A stretch of DNA of 64,000 bases from Zootoca vivipara (lineage: Eukaryota). Where the stretch lies: NCBI RefSeq assembly GCF_963506605.1, contig NC_083276.1, positions 22,568,001 through 22,632,000 of the forward strand, written 5' to 3'. Shown here one piece after another: positions 2,663 through 51,266 of this stretch (its first letter is position 1; every line of letters begins with the position of its first letter). The translations under genes were made by a program, and so were the position numbers. Under the pieces are notes generated by a model, which saw nothing but the letters and a program-made list of their open reading frames with translations, searched no databases and was not told where the DNA came from.

Positions 2663-2808
2663 CAGGCCTGGCTCTAGGTGTAGTCCCAGTGGTGCGGGGC
2701 AGCAGGGGGGACGCTCGCGGCAAAGCCGCGCGGAAGCTGTGCTGCGCGCTGGGAGGGCGCCGGACCGATCTCCGCACCAGGGCGCCCGACTTGCTTGAGA
2801 CGGCCCTG
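2663..2808. mobile_element. GC-rich hAT MITE
   Basis: CAGG...CCTG ends with a perfect 8-bp TSD CCAAGCAG. Confidence 0.82.
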
Positions 2809-2952
2809 CCAAGCAGTTATAAAATTTATGTTCTAGGGAACCCCAGAATTCCTTGGAAGGTTACTGGTTGTCTTAGCTAGGAAATTGGTGGAAATGGAAT
2901 TCTGAAACACTAGGTGCTCTTTTCTCCCAATTCTACTTAAAAGCACAGGGAG

Positions 2953-3592
2953 CAGGGCCGACTTAAGCCTATCTGACGCCGTGGTGTAGGGATCTCTTGG
3001 GCGCCCTCCACTCCCACCCTTCCCTCCCTTCCACCACCTCGATGGAGCGCAACAGGAGGTCCCCAGCCTGGGAATCTGGCCCGTCTCTTCCCTCTGGCCC
3101 CAAAGACGGGCTCGTGCACCCGCTTTGGGGAGCCGCCCCGCGCGCTCCTTGGAGAGGTTACCTGGCCTGGAGCGCAAATGGGGCCACCGCGCCGCTCCTC
3201 CTCCTGCGGCTCCTCCGCCCCCTGGGCAGACGAGGCGTCTCCACTTTACAAAAATCGCCGAGCCAGAGGCGGTAATGGTAGTGGCAGCAGCGGCAGCAGC
3301 AGAAAGGGAGGCAGGGATGCTGCCACCTGTGCTCTGCCTCTGCCTGTTGGCCAAAGCGGCTGTGCGGCACTGCCGCCCAGGGAGCCCTGGCTGCCACGCC
3401 AAAGGGAGACTCATGGCCGGCTTCCCCGCAACAGCGCCCACATCTCGATATGAGGCGGGTGAGAGCAGCGCTGCCAGCATGGCTTGAGGGCGGCTCCTCC
3501 CACAGGGCACGGCACGGCATGGCGGAGGCGCCCTCCAAAACGTGGCACCATGGCGCCTTGTGCCAGTAGCCTCTATGGCTAAGACACCCCTG
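2953..3592. mobile_element. GC-rich non-autonomous hAT element
   Basis: CAGGG...CCCTG imperfect TIR. 8-bp TSD ACAGGGAG/GCAGGGAG. Confidence 0.72.
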
Positions 3593-6500
3593 GCAGGGAG
3601 ACGCAGAAGAGAGTTGGGTGTGTTCACTGCTTCTCACTATCAGGCCTCATAAGCAGCAGAGGTCCCTTCAGGCATTGTGGAAAAACAGGGAAGACAACAA
3701 ATGAGAGGAGCCAGAGAGTTGACTACAGGACAGTGCTGTCCATGAGGCAGACTGAGGCACCTGCCTCAGGTGATGGAATCCAAGGAGCACCTCTGCAACA
3801 ATCTGGTCTGCTTTCGTATGTGCAACTGAGGAGAGTCCCACCTTGTCCTTCACTTCAAGCAACAAAAGGTCTAGGGGCGGCCCTGGCCAAGTTCCTTTCA
3901 CTTTAACCACTTTGTCCCGGTGCTTCAAAAGGCCGAAGGTCAGCCTTGCCATAAAGCTACTGTAAGATGTATAGAATACCCTGAACAAAGAGATTTGCGA
4001 AAGCTATTCACATGAGGAAATTGGGGGATTAAGTCCGAGTCTCAGCTTTCACAGCTCACAAAAGCTCTGACAAATAAACTCCTCCATACTACAAGTACTG
4101 TATATCAAGTTCCTTTTGTGTCATGTATTCTCGGATGGTTATTTACTGTTTTTCTTCCTTGTTAGGCCAGATGCCAAATAGCATTCATTACACGTTTTCC
4201 CGCCCTTAATCCCAACCATGAGTAAGGGAAAACTATATATAGTTTCTAATGCCACAGTCTTGAAATCACTGAAATAGGCCCATGGAGAATTGCAGTGTAA
4301 ACAGCTTCCAACTTCATTATACATTTCATGCACTCATACCTGTGAGCCATGGCTTTTTATGTGATTTTTTTTTAATGAATGGCACTTGTTTCCAAGGTAT
4401 CCAAGCAACTACAGTACAATCACACCTTACTCAGGAGTTTGGTTCCAAGGCATATGCCCAAACCCCTGGAACCAGTGAGTGGGAGAGAAATGGAGAGCAT
4501 GTTCTGCATGCCCAGAGCCCACATGACAAGTAGGTCTTGCCCAGCAAGCAAGGCTGAGAGGTTAAAAGCTCTTTCTGCACTGGGTAACCCAAGTGGACCT
4601 TACAAAGACAGCCTATATAGGCTGAGTTAGGGGATCTATTTTCACTTGCAGATCTGTTTTCCCCAAGCCCCACCCACCTGCCCCACCTTGAGCAGGTAAA
4701 GAGATCACTGGAACGACTGGGCTTCCAGACAGGTCGCGTTCCTGCCAAAAGCAGAGCTTGAAGGCAACACCGACCAGGTGGTTAGCAAGTCCTGCTATGT
4801 CTGACCTGCACTCAGGAGTTTCCCATCAGGAACGTCACAAGCACAGTTTTAATTCATTTAATTCATTTGTTCCTTTGCCACCTGGCTTGAACTCAAGGTG
4901 TATTGTGAAGGGAAAATGGGTTGACTGATGTCACAGCAATATCAGGTGACAGGCAGGTGTGTGGCACAACCCACCTGTTCAGTGGCATGTAGGGAGTGGG
5001 GAAGTTCGGGATCTGGCCCACCAGTTGGATCCTGTTCTACATCTATGATGTGTAGACTATCCAGAACTTGATAGAACAGTGGTCTGACTTTAAATGTAGA
5101 TGTTAAAAGTAGTTGTGGCAGCACTGGAGAATAACCCTGCAACTACCCCTCTCCATACAGGTGTTTTTATTATTAGAATCTTTCTCATAGGTATTTGCCC
5201 CATGTGCAGCTACTTGTATGCATCTCCATGTCATGTCTCATTTGAAAAGGACAAAAAGAAGCCTGCGATGGCTATGATTTTTTATATGCTCTTTTTTTCT
5301 TCTTTTTATTTTGAGCTAGTGGGAAGATAGTTTGGTTCCACATAACGGCAGTCTTTCAGGTCCCTTCAAAGTGGTCTCTCTCTGTGTGTGGATCAAGACT
5401 GACATCCAACCTGCAAATTTCTATATCCATGTACCTTTCAGAATCTTTATTGAATTCAGCACCCTGTGCAAGACTCTCCGCCCTAGGTGCAAAGTGGATT
5501 CTCTGTCTCCTGCGGTCTAAGCCTTAGAAAGCTTAATTTGAATTGGACTCCCCTCTGAGTTCTCATTTGCAAGGGACATGGGAGCATGCATCTTAAAAAT
5601 GAGATGCTAGGAAACTAAGATGGGTTTCTCAAATGCAGTCTGTAGTCGCTGTGATTGAGAATTACCCCGTATCACAGGGGAACGGAGGTCGTGCTTTCCC
5701 CTGACCTGAAGATCTTTTCCTACATCAAGTGAGACTGCAGTTGCTGGATTGTTGTCTTCCTGTTGGGTGTTTCTAGGGACGATTACTTTCAGTCCCCAGG
5801 CTTTGTTCTCTCAATTTCTGTGTGTTTTTGGACAATGGGTCTTTCTCTGTTCCGTCTCTCTATTGTTGATTTTTCTTTCCTATTATTTTGGTTTTCCGTT
5901 ATTCTTCGTCTTTAGACTAGTCTGACTTTTTTGGATTTTATGTTGAAAGCTTTTACTGTAATTTAAAAAAAATCTTTTTTTTTTTTAAAAAAAAGACAAT
6001 TGGTTCTACTAGCCCAAATACCTGCAATGTGAACCCAGACTTTAAAACATATCTTTGGCAACTGAATCATGTAACATAAATGCTGAGTTTTGTTTTGTTT
6101 TTGCCCTTCTTTATTAACAACAACATGAACAGATAAAATAACTAACTAGAAATATATAATTTATATCGAAGCTTGTTCTGCCTCTTTCTTTTTAAATAAA
6201 CCTGTTTTATTACATTTTGGATCTTAAAAGCCATTGGACCTAGAGGGACTGCCAGACCAGCTCGCTTTATGAAAAGAGCTCCATGCTAACCTAGGGCAGT
6301 TGATCCTATCTTGGATGGTAAACAAGAAACAGAGCAGGTCCATGACAGCTGGCCCAGACATAGCTATCCTGGCCAGAGTGATTTTCATCCACTTTGAATG
6401 GGCATCTATTACTGCCAGGGAGGGGAACTGATACAAGAAAAGAGCTCCAAACAAGTCAAAGGCCTGAACAATCAGGTTCAGGATTCCCATTGCCATTCCC

Positions 6501-12979: not shown

Positions 12980-14350
12980 GTAAAAGCGCGTTTCAACTTC
13001 CGATGCGCACAAAGGAGCCCGCCGTGGCGTTAGCTCCCCAAGACCAGATCTGTGCTCAGCAAAAGCGCCTGGGCTGTAGCAGGAGCGGCTTGCAAGGCGA
13101 GGCGAGGCGCGCGCTCAGCAGCAGCCGTGCAACGAATCCCCAAAGCGAGGCACGCACAGCGCCTGCCTCCGACGACGAGGCCAGCCCCGGGCAGCTGGAG
13201 CAAGAGCGGAGAACCGCTTGCATGCGAATTAATCGGGGAGGGAGGGATTACATCTCCTCGCGGAGGGTTACCAGCGCGCTCGATCTCTTGGCCCAGCCCC
13301 TTAACGCTCGGGATATGCCGAGGCGTCTTCGCCGGAGGTTTGTGAAGAGCTCTCCGATTGGCCGAAGGGACCCTGCAATGGTTGGCGGGCAAGAGCCGGG
13401 CGCCCGGATTGGCGGCCTTGTACCTGCAATGCGTCAAGCAGTGATGCTGGAGTGAATGTGCCGGAGAAGGGTTTTTGTATGAATGGCGGGGGGCGGGGGT
13501 GAGGGCGACTCCTTTGCGCGGGGTTTGCGCCGCCGCTCGCATCTGCTAGGGTGGCCCGGTGGGCGCAATCGGGCTTGCCTTTGCGATTTGCAGCAGGGGC
13601 GGCTGCAGCCCCGAGCAGGCGCGCGGGATTTGGATGGCCAAACGCGTGTCAGGGCTGCTGACTTTTTCCTGTCTCCCTCCCGCGTGGAAACGCGGTCGTG
13701 GGGAAGCTGTCAGAAGTGTGACCAGCGCGTCGCCACCCATCTCTCTCTATCTCTCTTTATTCCACCCTCCCTCCTGAGTAGGACACACACCCCAAGAGCA
13801 GATCCTGGGTGGGCAGGTGGTTTTGCAACACGCCCCAAAACCGGATCTCCCCCTCCGATTTTTGCAACACAGTCCCGCATCGTGGCAGCAGCGGCGACTG
13901 TCGGAACAGCGCCGTGCCCTCGCGGGCGCAGGCGATACAGAGTCGGGACAGAGGGGAAGCCGCGAGGGCGGGACGCGCAGTAACCGCATCCCCAAGTATC
14001 GATGTCGCTGGCCTCGCCCGGAGATCGTAGGGACGCGCTGCTCAGTTTCCAAGCAGGGCTGGGACCCAGTGACACTTGAGAGAGGACTCTGTAAAGAGCA
14101 AGCTTTAAATAGGTAGAAGTAGGGCGAAGGCTCTTTATCGTCCTTTCGCGCTCCAATGCGAAAGAGGCGCGTCGCTATAATATATATATGTGTGTATGTG
14201 TGTTTCATATGTCTCACCTATTATTTAAAGGGGGACGAGGAGAGAAAACTCGCGCTAGGGGAGGGTGCGGAAAGAGTCGGATTCTTCTCCGTATGTTTAA
14301 AAACGCTTGAATATCTGTTTATTGCTATCGCGGCTTTTTATTTTATTTTA
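12980..14350. promoter_or_regulatory. Orphan CpG island, promoter/enhancer-like
   Basis: Very CpG-dense with no TE termini seen. Inverted CCAAT boxes at 13357 and 13408, GC box at 13490-13498. Confidence 0.6.
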
Positions 14351-19618: not shown

Positions 19619-20619
19619 TATCTTTTATCTATCCATCTTAAGAATGCAAACAAGAAGAAAAACAGCAACTTAAGCTTCTGAATACTATAAATGACAAACA
19701 ACCCAGTGATGATGATCATTCCCTGAGGAGCTGGTTGTTCTTACCATCTTTTCAAAAACACAGTTGGGGAATATTCATAGTACAACAATTAAATTCGGGG
19801 GGGGGGGGAGGAGTGTGATTACTTTTGCTTGCAAGGCACTGCATCCTTGGTGCACAGGAATTAATTTATTCAGATAAGAGTAGGAAGCACTCAGTTCCCA
19901 TAAAAAATGGAAATGGATGTGATGGCTGAAAGTGTAAATGCCATTAATAATAATAAAAAGATTAGATGTGTTTGTGGAGGACAGATCTATCAGCAGCTCT
20001 TAGCCATGATAATGAAAATTCAGCAGCCTTCTCCAGCTTGGTGTCTTCAAATGCTGTATTTTATTGGAACGATCATCGCTGATCATTAGCAATGCTGGCT
20101 GGGGCAGATGGGATTTCAAAACCATCCCACAATAGGAACTTGTGGAAGAGCTAGGGTGTCCAAAACTGTGAATGAGTTGAGGAGAGGACTTCACCTTTAT
20201 TGCCCTAGACTAGGGATGAGGAGTCTGCGACCCTTCAACTCCCATGATCTTATATCTTTAGCAATACTGGCTGGAATGGATGGGAGTTGGAGTCTAACAT
20301 CGGGAGGGCACCATGAAGGTGCCTATGGGGAAGGGATGGGGAACCTAAGGCCTTCTAGATGTTGTGGGACTCCAAACTCCAGTCATCCCCAGCCAGCCTA
20401 GACAGTGGAGAGCTCTCTGCTATAGTCTTTAATGAAAACAAAAGCAAATAGCTTTCCTACTGTTTCCCTCAGCAGCTGTGTTTCAGATACAGTATTGTGA
20501 AAACATCAACACCTATGCTCCAGCAGCAAGTACTCCTATCTGCACAGCCAACAAGGTGGGAGTAAATACTCTTGTCCGTTTTAGTGTACTGATGCTGTTG
20601 TAAGAATTTTAAGGTTATA

Positions 20620-21608
20620 TCCTATATAATAAAGTCCCTGTGTCTCTGCATCCAGATTCCGTGTGTCCCGTTTTTCGCGCTACTGAGCATGTGCCCCACG
20701 GACACGGGGATTGGACGCAGAGACTGGATGCACACAGAGCCGGGGGGGGGAGGAATGCGGTTCTTTCTCCCTCAACGGCTTCCCTTCCAAACTGCCGTTC
20801 CGCGCCTCGCCTCCCGATTAATGGCGCGAGGGAAAGAGGGAAAGGGACCGTGAGGGATTGAGAAGCGAGTGCGCGTTCCCCGCCGCCGTTACCCATCCCC
20901 ACCCCGCCGCCGCATCCCAACCCCTCCCCCCACCCGGCGTGAGGCAGGCTGAGCCCTGGGTGGGTTGGGAAAGGCGAGGAGAAGGAGGCTGCTTTCCCCC
21001 CTTTTTTCCCTCTCCTACGCTCCCCCCCCCAACAACCAGCAGCAAGCAGGCGTCGCACACACACACGCACGCTCTCCCCCCCCCACCCCTCTGCCTACCG
21101 TTTCCCTCACGGTGCAGGATCAGAGGCAGACAGAAGCGGGGACAGCGCATGGGGGGGGGAGGAATAACAGCCTGGGGGGAGATGTTTGACAGGGAGCAGG
21201 GAAGGAGGGGCGGGCGGCAGCCGCCCGCCCCTCTTTCCCTGCTCCGTGAAGCATCTCCTCTGCTACCCCGCGCCTCCGCTGCGTTCAGCAAGAAGATGGT
21301 GGCAGCGGAGGGATGCTGCTCATTCTTCCCCGCTAACCCTTCGCAAAAGCAGGCTCGAGCCCAGGGGGAGGGTAGGAAGGAAAGAGGGCCCTGGCCGCCC
21401 CTACCTTCCCCCCTCCCCTGCCTAGGCATGGACTGCAGCAGCGGAGGAGGAGGAGGCGGAGCAGCGACAGAGGAGCAGCACCGGTGGCAGCCCAGGAGAG
21501 TCCCGGCACGTGTGGGTGGAGAAAAGAAGGGAGGGGGAGAGAGGGGGGAATGGGCGGGGGAATTGCATGTTCTAGCACCCGTTAATTTAACGGGCTTCAA
21601 GATACTAG
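20620..21608 (+). mobile_element. Non-autonomous Helitron
   Basis: 5' TCCTATATAATAAAG. 3' hairpin CCCGTTAATTTAACGGG (21578-21594) followed by CTAG (21605-21608). Inserted between A and T with no TSD. Confidence 0.88.
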
Positions 21609-28417: not shown

Positions 28418-28559
28418 CACTTTCCAAAACATATACCTTATCACAGATATTTGGTAAGGTGGGGTGGAATTGGGAGGAGTGAAATCAAAGGAAAATAAAG
28501 ATGCATGGAGAAGAGACAGCGACAATAATAACTGCAGCAACACAATTGCAGCGACCAGG

Positions 28560-29010
28560 AACAAAGCGGTGTTTACTGAGACTGCAGCCATCTTAACCCT
28601 TGGCATTCGCCCACATTATAACCACTATGGCCTCTTCGCCTTAGCATCTTGTAGCCGGCGACATTTTGGAGCTGAAGCCGGGCGAAACTACATTTCCCGG
28701 CATGCTCGGGTAAGTCGCTGCCGCTGCCGCCATCTTGTTTCGGCCCACGCGATTTCTTCCGTGGGAACGGCATCCGGGAAGCGCCACCGGTGTTTCCGTG
28801 AGCAGGGACGGGATGGCTCTTTTTCCGGCTTTCGCGGGCGCTGCTAAACCCGGAGAGGCGCCAGCGGGCGAGACCGAGTGCTCCAAGAGAGGTAAATGGA
28901 CTCTTCCTCTCTCCCCCCCTTCGTCTGCCCTGATGGGCTCGTCCTGTTCCTGGAAGTCCCTCGCCCTTCAAAGCGGGTCCCTCCTTTACCTCCGCGCGCC
29001 GAGACCTAAA
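28560..29010 (+). promoter_or_regulatory. NRDE2 CpG-island promoter with ZNF143/THAP11-type and YY1 motifs
   Basis: CpG-dense. ACTACATTTCCCGGCATGC at 28687-28705, GCCGCCATCTTG at 28726-28737, and a second YY1-like GCAGCCATCTT at 28584-28594. Confidence 0.8.
28813..28891 (+). CDS. NRDE2: NRDE2 coding exon 1 (MALFPAFAG...)
   Basis: ATG 28813 in a CpG island. The N-terminus MALFPAFAG matches vertebrate NRDE2. Donor AG|GTAAAT, phase 1. Confidence 0.95.
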
Positions 29011-30290
29011 GTGGTTTCTGCAGGGATATCCTGCCCCTTCACCTCTGAAAAGTATGGGATCCTTGCATTTTGCGTATGCGCACACACAAAATAGGTTCAT
29101 TCCCCGTACAGGCATTTGCACATTTCCCTTAGTTTTGAGCAAAAGGGCGGGATGGACGGGTGGCTTGTAAAACGTGGGCAGCGGGGAACTACCGGTACCT
29201 CTAATCATCGCACTCTTTCCAAGCATCTCCTTTTTTCCCGTCTTCTCTGTGCTGATTTCTTGTGCTCGGAGCCTTGTTGGAGAAGTCCAGCAACATACTT
29301 CAGGACAGAACTGGGCCACAGGTTCTGTTGGTTTGTGCGGGATTTGCTTCTAATGAAGTTGGCTTAGATTGCTGTCCAGCTCTTATTCTTTTGACTGGTC
29401 TTCTGAGTCTCAAACTTTCTGGCCAAGTAACATGATAGGGAACTGTAGATAACATAGCTGATTAAAATGGACGACATGCGTTAACACCCCTTCTCCATGA
29501 CAGCCATACACCTCGGTCTGCTTACATGCATTTGATAGCCTGAACTGTCATGCAACTAATTGTTAAGAGGATTCATTCTCTCTGAGAGTTCCTAATATGG
29601 TGTAAAGGAGGAGATGGCCTTTTTAAAGGCATGTTGTGCTCAAGCAGTTTGAAATAATCCTGCTAAAATTTAGAAACTGGCAGAGAACTATGGGATCCAC
29701 ATTTGTATGAGATGCATGTGCTTGAGGTAACATTTTAGGGATGTCACACTATTAAAAATATTTAAGTTTCTAGCCCTCATGGTGGATCGTCCTAGCTGTG
29801 AGTCCTGAAAGACCAGCTCCCTGCCTGTCAGGTGGGGCCCTATCTGACTCCAGTTACAAAAGCTGAGGCTGCTAAACAGACTTCTGTATTGTTTAGGGGT
29901 TTGTGGGAGGCGGGGGGGGGGGGAAGGGGGTTGTTGCTATTATTGGTAAATTTTTTGTATACTGTATTTATTTTAGATCCTAAAATTTGGTTGTGTACTT
30001 TTTGATGTTTCATTGTTTATGACTACTTTTGCTAAGTTTGCAATTATGTAATTTTTAAATGTTCTAAGCCACCTTGAGTATGGTTTTAATTATGGAAAGG
30101 CAGCATACAAATAAAATTATGTACGTACTCAGCGCCTGGCAGCCTATGCTGAAGCGAATAATCATGTACAACAGTTAAAATACAATAAGAACAAGTGAGG
30201 ATATTACTCATAGCACTAGTGCCTGAGTGTTGAGGTACACTTATAGAGTCTTACTGTCTGATCACAGATCTGGAGGCAAGAATGGAACTA

Positions 30291-50494: not shown

Positions 50495-51266
50495 CTAGTA
50501 TCATGAAGTCCGTTAAATTAACGGGTGCTAAAATTAATTAGCGGGGTTTCCCCCCCCCCGGTGACTCACCCACCGCCACCACCTCAGCCCCTCACTCAGT
50601 CCCATCCCTGCCCCCCGCCCCAGCCAGCTGCCTCCTCAGCTTCCTCTCTCCCTCCCCATTTCCCACCNNNNNNNNNNNNNNNNNNNNNNNNNNNNNNNNN
50701 NNNNNNNNNNNNNNNNNNNNNNNNNNNNNNNNNNNNNNNNNNNNNNNNNNNNNNNNNNNNNNNNNNNNNNNNNNNNNNNNNNNNNNNNNNNNNNNNNNNC
50801 AGAAGCCCTTCCAACCCCCCCCCCCAAATCCACACACACTTCCAGGGACTAATTCCCCCTTCCCCCGCAGGTGCGCCCGCCCACTCTCCTGCTTTCGCCC
50901 CTCAGTAACGGCTAAACGATCCTTCAGCCCAGCAGCCGCATCACTCGTGGCTTGCACTCTCTCTCTATCCACACCCACCTACCCTCCCTTTCCCTTTCAC
51001 CGGCACACGCCTGCCTCCTCTCCTTCCCCTCTAACGGAGAAGAAACCAGGAGGAAAGAGCGAGATCCTTCCGTAGCACAGCAGAGGCAAGGGGAAGCTGC
51101 ACACTTTTTTTTGTATGGTTGTGTATATGCAAGCATGTAATCTCTCTCACGGTCCTGGTTTATCCCGTCCAAGTCCCAACGGCTGTCCGTGGGGCACATG
51201 CGCAGTAGCGCAATCCCACGGACACAGGGACTGGACGCAGAGACACTTGCACTTTATTATATAGGA
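50495..51266 (-). mobile_element. Non-autonomous Helitron, same family (contains the N gap)
   Basis: Same 5' TCCTATATAATAAAG and 3' hairpin plus CTAG on the - strand. Removing it restores the surrounding L1 frame at an A|T site. Confidence 0.88.
50668..50799. other. Assembly gap (N run) inside the GC-rich Helitron interior
   Basis: Run of n. Confidence 1.

Follow-up and report, generated by a model that had tools for sequence, protein, structure and literature searches.

Capture of promoter and first-exon DNA by a Helitron family, probably a known and horizontally transferred one, in the lizard Zootoca vivipara

Promoter and first-exon DNA has been captured in the lizard Zootoca vivipara by what is most likely a known, horizontally transferred Helitron family, with donors that can be named and a master element that is probably still living. 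Promoter capture is known from bats; what is new is the lizard case, the named donors and the probable living partner, and our searches of the open-access literature turned up no report of lacertid Helitrons capturing promoters. The evidence presented here comes from two non-autonomous elements in one 64-kb stretch of DNA (the window; Table 1), their relatives across the genome, an intact autonomous partner and seven host donor loci.

Two window Helitrons with common ends and unlike interiors

The element at 20620-21608 has the canonical Helitron features, namely a 5' TC, a 3' CTRR and a short hairpin before the 3' end. Its borders are exact (A/TC at 20619/20620 and CTAG/T at 21608/21609), and the 3' stem, whose fold z is -3.5 in both window elements, closes 10 nt before CTAG. 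GC content and CpG observed/expected ratio (o/e) are 0.64 and 0.62, versus 0.44 and 0.38 for the whole window. Among the 40 candidates scored for its subfamily (A), 36 span at least 966 of 988 bases; both ends are present in 29 of 30 fetched copies, and 28 of these 29 sit at A/T with differing flanks, which bears out the preliminary description of a 989-bp Helitron inserted at A/T without target duplication. The median subfamily-A copy departs from the consensus by 1.4% at non-CpG sites and by 9.9% at CpG sites (the copies dated are those most similar to the query, and age is possibly understated). A 267-codon frame inside the element was rejected as a gene, as it matches no Pfam family.

The second element lies where it had been placed earlier, on a strand then left unstated and now seen to be minus; 132 of its bases are N in the window. 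As proposed, the two elements have common ends and unlike interiors: the 5' ends are alike over ~100 bp at 80% (E 9e-18) and the 3' ends over 39 bp at 92% (E 4e-10), and no interior alignment was found between the two. Both ends occur in 22 of 30 fetched copies of its subfamily (B), all 22 at A/T. The search for a donor of its interior found none: among the loci examined, its two readable arms match 43 and 24, and every one of these has Helitron ends.

Table 1. Features of the window (window coordinates).
Feature	Span	Strand	Remarks
Non-autonomous Helitron, subfamily A, 989 bp	20620-21608	+	inserted at A/T
Helitron 5' terminal region	20620-20736	+	TC start, long imperfect stem; fold z -3.1
RAN intron 1 piece, antisense to RAN	20743-20944	+	79% to L315, E 6e-51
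RAN promoter piece	20942-20976	+	joined to intron piece across a 315-bp deletion removing inferred exon 1
Helitron-own module	20976-21105	+	common to 5' region of autonomous copies; 73% to L194; shorter stretches match L184 at 87-92%
Interior piece of older TIR MITE	21116-21355	+	77-82% to MITE copies; includes 21178-21258 palindrome and AAGATGG
Inferred first-exon piece of host gene (unnamed), sense	21352-21507	+	95% to L320; ends 4 nt before GT donor site
Purine-rich module	21508-21566 (59 bases)	+	also in another subfamily (L080)
Helitron 3' end	21567-21608	+	7-bp stem at 21578-21594, then CTAG; 90% to autonomous 3' end
NRDE2 own CpG island	28500-29250	+	o/e 0.86-0.94; likely start codon 28813 (by eye)
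Non-autonomous Helitron, subfamily B, 772 bp	50495-51266	-	in NRDE2 intron, antisense

Origin of the 20620-21608 interior

Whole-element and 241-bp DNA searches were dominated by subfamily copies (40 candidates scored). Three interior modules were also probed with 22-23-base patterns, two mismatches allowed, and every listed place not known as a family copy was fetched. Judged by these matches, the interior is a patchwork in which two pieces come from host CpG islands, one comes from a MITE and one is Helitron-own. It had been described as stitched CpG-island and first-exon DNA, and this holds for the RAN and L320 pieces but not for the ~370 of 830 interior bases (~40%) that trace to transposons, ~130 of them Helitron-own.

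The first module gave 92 matches, 46 of them outside the subfamily: 42 with Helitron ends, three without further homology, and L315, which has no Helitron end and is homologous at 81% over 231 bases and again in a second piece. RAN begins in L315, a CpG island of 1.5 kb; further along the gene, L347 contains six coding exons, one of which matches Ran in PDB (E 1e-38). In total ~235 bp of the element derive from this intron-1/promoter island, and other subfamilies carry up to ~900 bp of the same RAN span with smaller deletions. Matches to the third module numbered 74, 25 of them outside the subfamily, comprising 17 Helitrons (6 with the piece reversed), seven places without further homology, and L320, a 1-kb CpG island at G000:C13 ~19.53 Mb; the subfamily consensus of the 156-bp first-exon piece matches L320 at 151 of 156 positions. 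Of the 46 and 25 non-subfamily probe matches, L315 and L320 alone combine extended homology with the absence of a Helitron end; the hits sought at host gene 5' ends are thereby found at RAN and probably at L320.

The middle module, with 101 matches (100 listed), fell at 56 non-subfamily places, 10 in Helitrons and 46 without Helitron ends around the probe. The latter belong to a MITE family with CCGT-starting inverted ends and a TA target, the source of ~240 bp of the interior: a left terminal inverted repeat (TIR) was found at 35 of the 46 loci (33 after TA, a few of the left matches being distant from the probe), a right one at 27 (20 before TA) and both at 19. From the likeness of its TIRs and TA target to TcMar-N, the MITE donor may be labeled Tc1/mariner-type; TcMar-N MITEs of Anolis, as given in the available part of PMC3014272, likewise have TA targets and CCGT-like ends. 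The interiors of several of these MITEs (L217, L237, L256, L258, L213 and L273) are also GC-rich mosaics, with modules shared with Helitrons and with one another, and the TIR MITEs may be Pack-type elements with host cargo of their own. AAGATGG at 21293-21299, earlier read as a first-exon sign, is instead a private mutation inside MITE-derived DNA, present in 1 of 21 readable subfamily-A copies (8 more are unreadable with the anchor).

The family across the genome and its autonomous partner

Exact 5' ends number 1,280 in the genome versus 2 for a reversed control, and exact 3' ends 147 versus 0. The family sample comprises 70 5' ends, drawn from the first 78 listed for contig C1 by leaving out the window's two, five already in hand and one tandem neighbor; for the first 30, only 1.5 kb downstream was examined. 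The family 3' end was present for 56 of the 70 and absent within reach for 14, and the 56 sampled elements are defined by this hairpin end. They range from 325 to 3,171 bp and are mosaic, with internal direct and inverted duplications common by eye. Their interiors fall into 28 clusters, and shared modules link 43 of 58 rows (the 56 elements plus two consensus rows). All 56 have the 3' T, the 5' A being part of the search pattern. These counts support the earlier expectation that the termini co-occur genome-wide with differing interiors. An interior with GC of at least 0.55 and CpG o/e of at least 0.6 was found in 42 of the 56, versus 0 of 53 downstream flanks; 14 of 198 and 4 of 122 background windows pass the same thresholds.

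The genome also holds an autonomous RepHel partner of the kind that had been predicted, an intact element of 6,580 bp with the family's ends. Pfam Helitron_like_N matches 24 places, eight of them within a 1,658-codon open frame, and substitutions among seven aligned autonomous copies number 0-8; three of these copies, each on a separate contig, are identical over 6,580 bp. The eight intact-frame copies (L176-L191; G000:C1, C2, C3, C6, C10) represent seven independent sites: L176 and L178 have 1,111 bp of 3' flank in common, with no CTRR where it stops, pointing to a local inverted duplication, and are therefore counted as one insertion. These copies are, on their sequence, a candidate natural active vertebrate Helitron. 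The frame contains what we take to be the Rep and helicase motifs. RepHel aligns to Helraiser over the whole core (PDB 7lcc, 1,749 bits), and its matches in a protein search include one at 100%, named Zootoca vivipara, as well as relatives at 77-82% from Hemicordylus and polypterid fish. RNA reads on the frame are almost absent in the 6% of one run that was covered, and decayed RepHel copies are also present. In a run from another organism (X15), reads on L185:3501-3640 reach a summed depth of ~18,000 at the 3' end versus ~18 on the frame, a contrast that would reflect non-autonomous copies sharing this end in very large numbers in that organism.

The multi-copy subfamily A and the near-identical autonomous copies uphold the view of a young lizard Helitron family. 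The 5' end of the young partner is only 79% like 20620-20736, and that of an older autonomous copy is 87% like it (bases 1-105); an older master may have moved subfamily A. One older autonomous copy, L194 (G000:C3 ~51.57 Mb), has a 41-bp RAN-derived piece in its 5' region. Upstream of its frame are ACTACA-type motifs, presumably like ZNF143 sites. From this 5' region, it appears that masters, too, may borrow host promoter DNA.

A very young non-autonomous subfamily of 1.78-kb elements (L371-L383) is represented by 11 copies, which fall into two groups of near-identical members. Three of the copies lie together at C1 43.07-43.09 Mb, and another is next to an autonomous copy on C2. These eleven cargo-bearing copies show 0-1 and 0-3 differences within the two groups over ~1,670 bases, with differing flanks, from which we infer that movement in trans was very recent. 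Elsewhere, four near-identical 2.06-kb Helitrons (L385-L388) lie within 16 kb at G000:C1 47.636-47.652 Mb, one head-to-tail with another element; this is local tandem amplification.

Further host donors and the direction of transfer

Two further subfamilies, L108 and L137, chosen by eye as promoter-like, led to five more host donors, four of them CpG-island-like (23 of 23 candidates scored for L108; 35 of 35 scored for L137, with 30 of 45 matches fetched). L108 traces to L358, a bidirectional-looking island with an ATG/GT exon, and to a duplicated island, L361/L366. L137 traces to L404 and L407, both CpG-rich, and to the CpG-poor L403, so that a single element can carry DNA from as many as three host donors; L403 also contributed to the 5' region of the master. 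Together with the RAN and L320 pieces, these donors substantiate the proposal that the family captures promoter, first-exon and first-intron DNA. L409 was rejected as a donor, having a decayed 5' end. The interior of L106 was likewise rejected as host cargo, as it traced to other dispersed repeats: of the 24 loci examined, 10 have no Helitron ends, yet these are repeats in their own right, and one of them has a TA/CCGT end. In that trace L210 lies near an exon that we take to be PGGHG, and it is not claimed as a donor.

Six of the seven donors are GC- and CpG-rich with non-repeated surroundings and no Helitron ends, the exception being the CpG-poor L403; L361 has a second copy, L366, and "non-repeated" here means no match among the loci examined and the probe matches. 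No Helitron end was found beside any of the seven within the 1.5-2 kb examined on each side. Attachment to a gene start is established for RAN, and for L320 and L358 it is suggested by the island and GT donor site only. Over the six CpG-rich donors, CpG was lost 24 times on the Helitron side versus 5 times on the donor side (p 5e-4), which sets the direction of transfer from host to Helitron. A Helitron at G000:C17 ~3.52 Mb (L357) carries the full 805-bp L358 island, with the ATG/GT exon and promoter center, at 92%, and is by its sequence the best candidate for a functional captured promoter.

CpG decay and the neighborhood of NRDE2

In subfamily A, 421 of 4,453 CpG sites have changed (9.5%) versus 385 of 24,585 other sites (1.6%), a decay six times faster at CpG. 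The copy at 20620-21608 is not protected: 16 of its 141 CpG sites have changed, which is the family rate (p 0.47), and its CpG-rich insert is probably methylated. NRDE2 itself is real, with Pfam NRDE-2 matching 4 of 6 frames scanned (best E 5e-29), and its likely start codon lies 7.2 kb from the element. The idea of an artificial CpG island 7 kb upstream of NRDE2 therefore keeps its gene and its distance, but the CpGs decay like methylated DNA and there is no sign of a role in NRDE2.

A silenced passenger, and not a working switch, is what the copy near NRDE2 most likely represents. We regard it as quite improbable that it serves as a CpG-island promoter or enhancer for NRDE2 or a neighbor, even though it has GC of 0.64 and CpG o/e of 0.62, carries promoter-region DNA from two genes and has counterparts in bats, where Helitrons with a captured NUBPL promoter drive transcripts according to the available text of PMC4778049. 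Against such a role are the family-rate CpG decay, the deletion of RAN exon 1 and the start region with the rest lying antisense, a second exon piece that has neither upstream promoter nor splice donor, and NRDE2's possession of its own island (o/e 0.94).

Elsewhere in the window, a strong CpG island with o/e 0.9 lies at 13000-14250; no EF-hand exon was found in the 64-kb window by which its gene could be named. A GC-rich stretch at 2700-3600 resembles another mosaic non-autonomous transposon.

Discussion

We consider it likely that 20620-21608 is a non-autonomous Helitron whose cargo was gathered stepwise by template switching, that it was moved in trans by the 6.58-kb RepHel element, and that the copy near NRDE2 is a passenger. 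In this model, drawn from sequence comparison, the RepHel protein would nick the shared ends and copy the element by rolling circle. While copying or gap repair is under way, the new strand would jump, at a few homologous bases, to an unlinked open (unmethylated) stretch and back, a step to which we give a slight preference over read-through or composite transposition. Foreign DNA would thus be placed between unchanged ends in either orientation, and short-homology deletions and fold-back duplications would reshuffle the cargo afterwards. Once inserted, the cargo would be methylated in the germ line and decay, leaving the copy near NRDE2 as a passenger.

Template switching is favored because no Helitron lies beside the donors, cargo occurs in both orientations and junction overlaps are short. 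One element (L336) even holds two opposite-orientation pieces of one donor, and seven junctions, counted by eye and partly nested, overlap by 2, 5, 3, 2, 1, 0 and 4 bases (mean 2.4, versus a chance estimate below 1). Alternatively, a Helitron may have inserted beside each donor, missed its terminator, read into the island and gained another Helitron's 3' end, with the parental insertions since lost. Bypass of the end has been shown experimentally for Helraiser (PMC4778049) and a composite case is reported in bats (PMC4224331), as far as the available portions of both papers go. The lizard family itself has internal 3' end relics cut just before the hairpin (L108, L137, L150 and L371, by eye) and head-to-tail copies, which fit read-through or composite transposition, and parental insertions that never became fixed would not be visible today, a situation met in 26 bat cases in the accessible text of PMC4224331. 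We nevertheless find this route doubtful, given that a Helitron end was found near none of the seven donors, that the family hairpin end is kept in all 56 elements (which are defined by it, 14 of 70 having none within reach), and that the opposite-orientation pieces in L336 need an extra strand switch.

A different objection is that the interiors are transposon-born GC-rich DNA, from the autonomous 5' region and the MITE, and that the gene-start matches are old transposon relics in promoters. The ~370 transposon-derived bases of the 830 in the interior, and the tracing of L106 to other repeats, would suit this reading, but we hold it to be very improbable, the least probable of those weighed here: the RAN pieces are colinear around non-repeated exon-1 sequence, the donors retain CpGs that the Helitron copies have lost (24 versus 5), and the matched donor pieces lie within wider islands without ends. 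Capture from the host by template switching remains the preferred reading. Because the cargo includes both promoter and intron DNA, and in either orientation, these cases cannot have come by way of mRNA; they point to open chromatin as the source, with capture at the DNA level.

More tentatively, and with rather less than even confidence, we suggest that the family preferentially captures unmethylated CpG islands by open-chromatin template switching, that most of its at least 1,300 copies are promoter patchworks, that spreading lineages have lost the start-site core, and that capture could be watched with a natural, unreconstructed master. That most copies carry host islands is judged from composition, since a donor-traced host piece was found in only 6 of the 56 sampled elements. 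The CpG-rich center of RAN was never seen in the 90 loci matched, and for L358 and L404 it is kept at one place each, deleted forms outnumbering full ones; with the start sites of these three cores being inferred and the deletions perhaps nested, loss of the CpG-rich start-site center in spreading lineages is a lead from three donors.

The family is most likely Heli1Xen1, which the available text of PMC12001565 describes as having moved horizontally between frogs, lacertids and polypterids; it places Zootoca, along with Xenopus and Lacerta, in a group a that is ~95% identical within itself. The Xenopus non-autonomous 5' end in that source agrees with the 50495-51266 element at 80 of 82 bases, with the same hairpin (by eye). 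Heli1Xen1 is a closer family than bat Helibat/Helraiser, to whose ends the 5' terminus had been likened. Contigs 94-96% like the master occur in non-host runs (organism-coded): contigs of another organism differ from it by ~5.5%, and RNA contigs from amphibian samples differ at 85 of 2,098 bases. The best protein relatives come from taxa listed in the same available text of PMC12001565. Organism B contigs matching the master at 0-1 differences were not used, as their depth is 2 and carry-over is possible.

In the portion of PMC12001565 at hand, Heli1Xen1 captures are studied only in X. laevis and are coding pieces, 17 of 19 5'-biased and called rare (64 insertions, mean element 152 bp); the lizard elements, in contrast, hold promoter and intron DNA in both orientations. 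The reason why Helitrons capture gene 5' ends is stated there as open. The same text dates the Zootoca invasion to <1 My from full-length copies. At its rate, the 1.4% divergence of subfamily A corresponds to ~5.6 My, which, with the decayed RepHel copies, suggests a residence older than <1 My. The family may have been present before the dated invasion, with one master bursting again recently.

Among other systems, bat Helibat resembles the lizard elements in its TC and CTAG ends with a hairpin. According to the accessible text of PMC4224331, capture in bats is biased to promoters, 5' UTRs and first exons and introns (15 promoters in 4,690 copies), the cargo also includes DNA transposons, and donors mostly have no Helitron nearby, as in the lizard. 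Bat elements carry 1-2 gene fragments there, whereas one lizard element (L137) has up to three host donors. Helraiser was reconstructed, with no intact natural master at hand in bats in the part of PMC4778049 available, while the lizard genome has identical intact masters. Helitron-1/2_AC of Anolis carolinensis are young, with few autonomous and many non-autonomous copies, like those of Zootoca; as described in the accessible sections of PMC3014272, however, the Anolis non-autonomous elements are mostly deletion derivatives in which capture is rare (one composite family), whereas the 28 interior types of Zootoca share little with the master beyond the ends.

For the study of capture, the lizard offers donors in the same genome that are often >90% alike, making junctions readable by the hundred, and an intact natural master that is a ready assay. 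For the biology of the lizard itself, the many dispersed, partly methylated copies of housekeeping islands such as that of RAN provide a test case for epigenetic conflict, and they can also mislead the mapping of CpG islands and methylation in lacertids.
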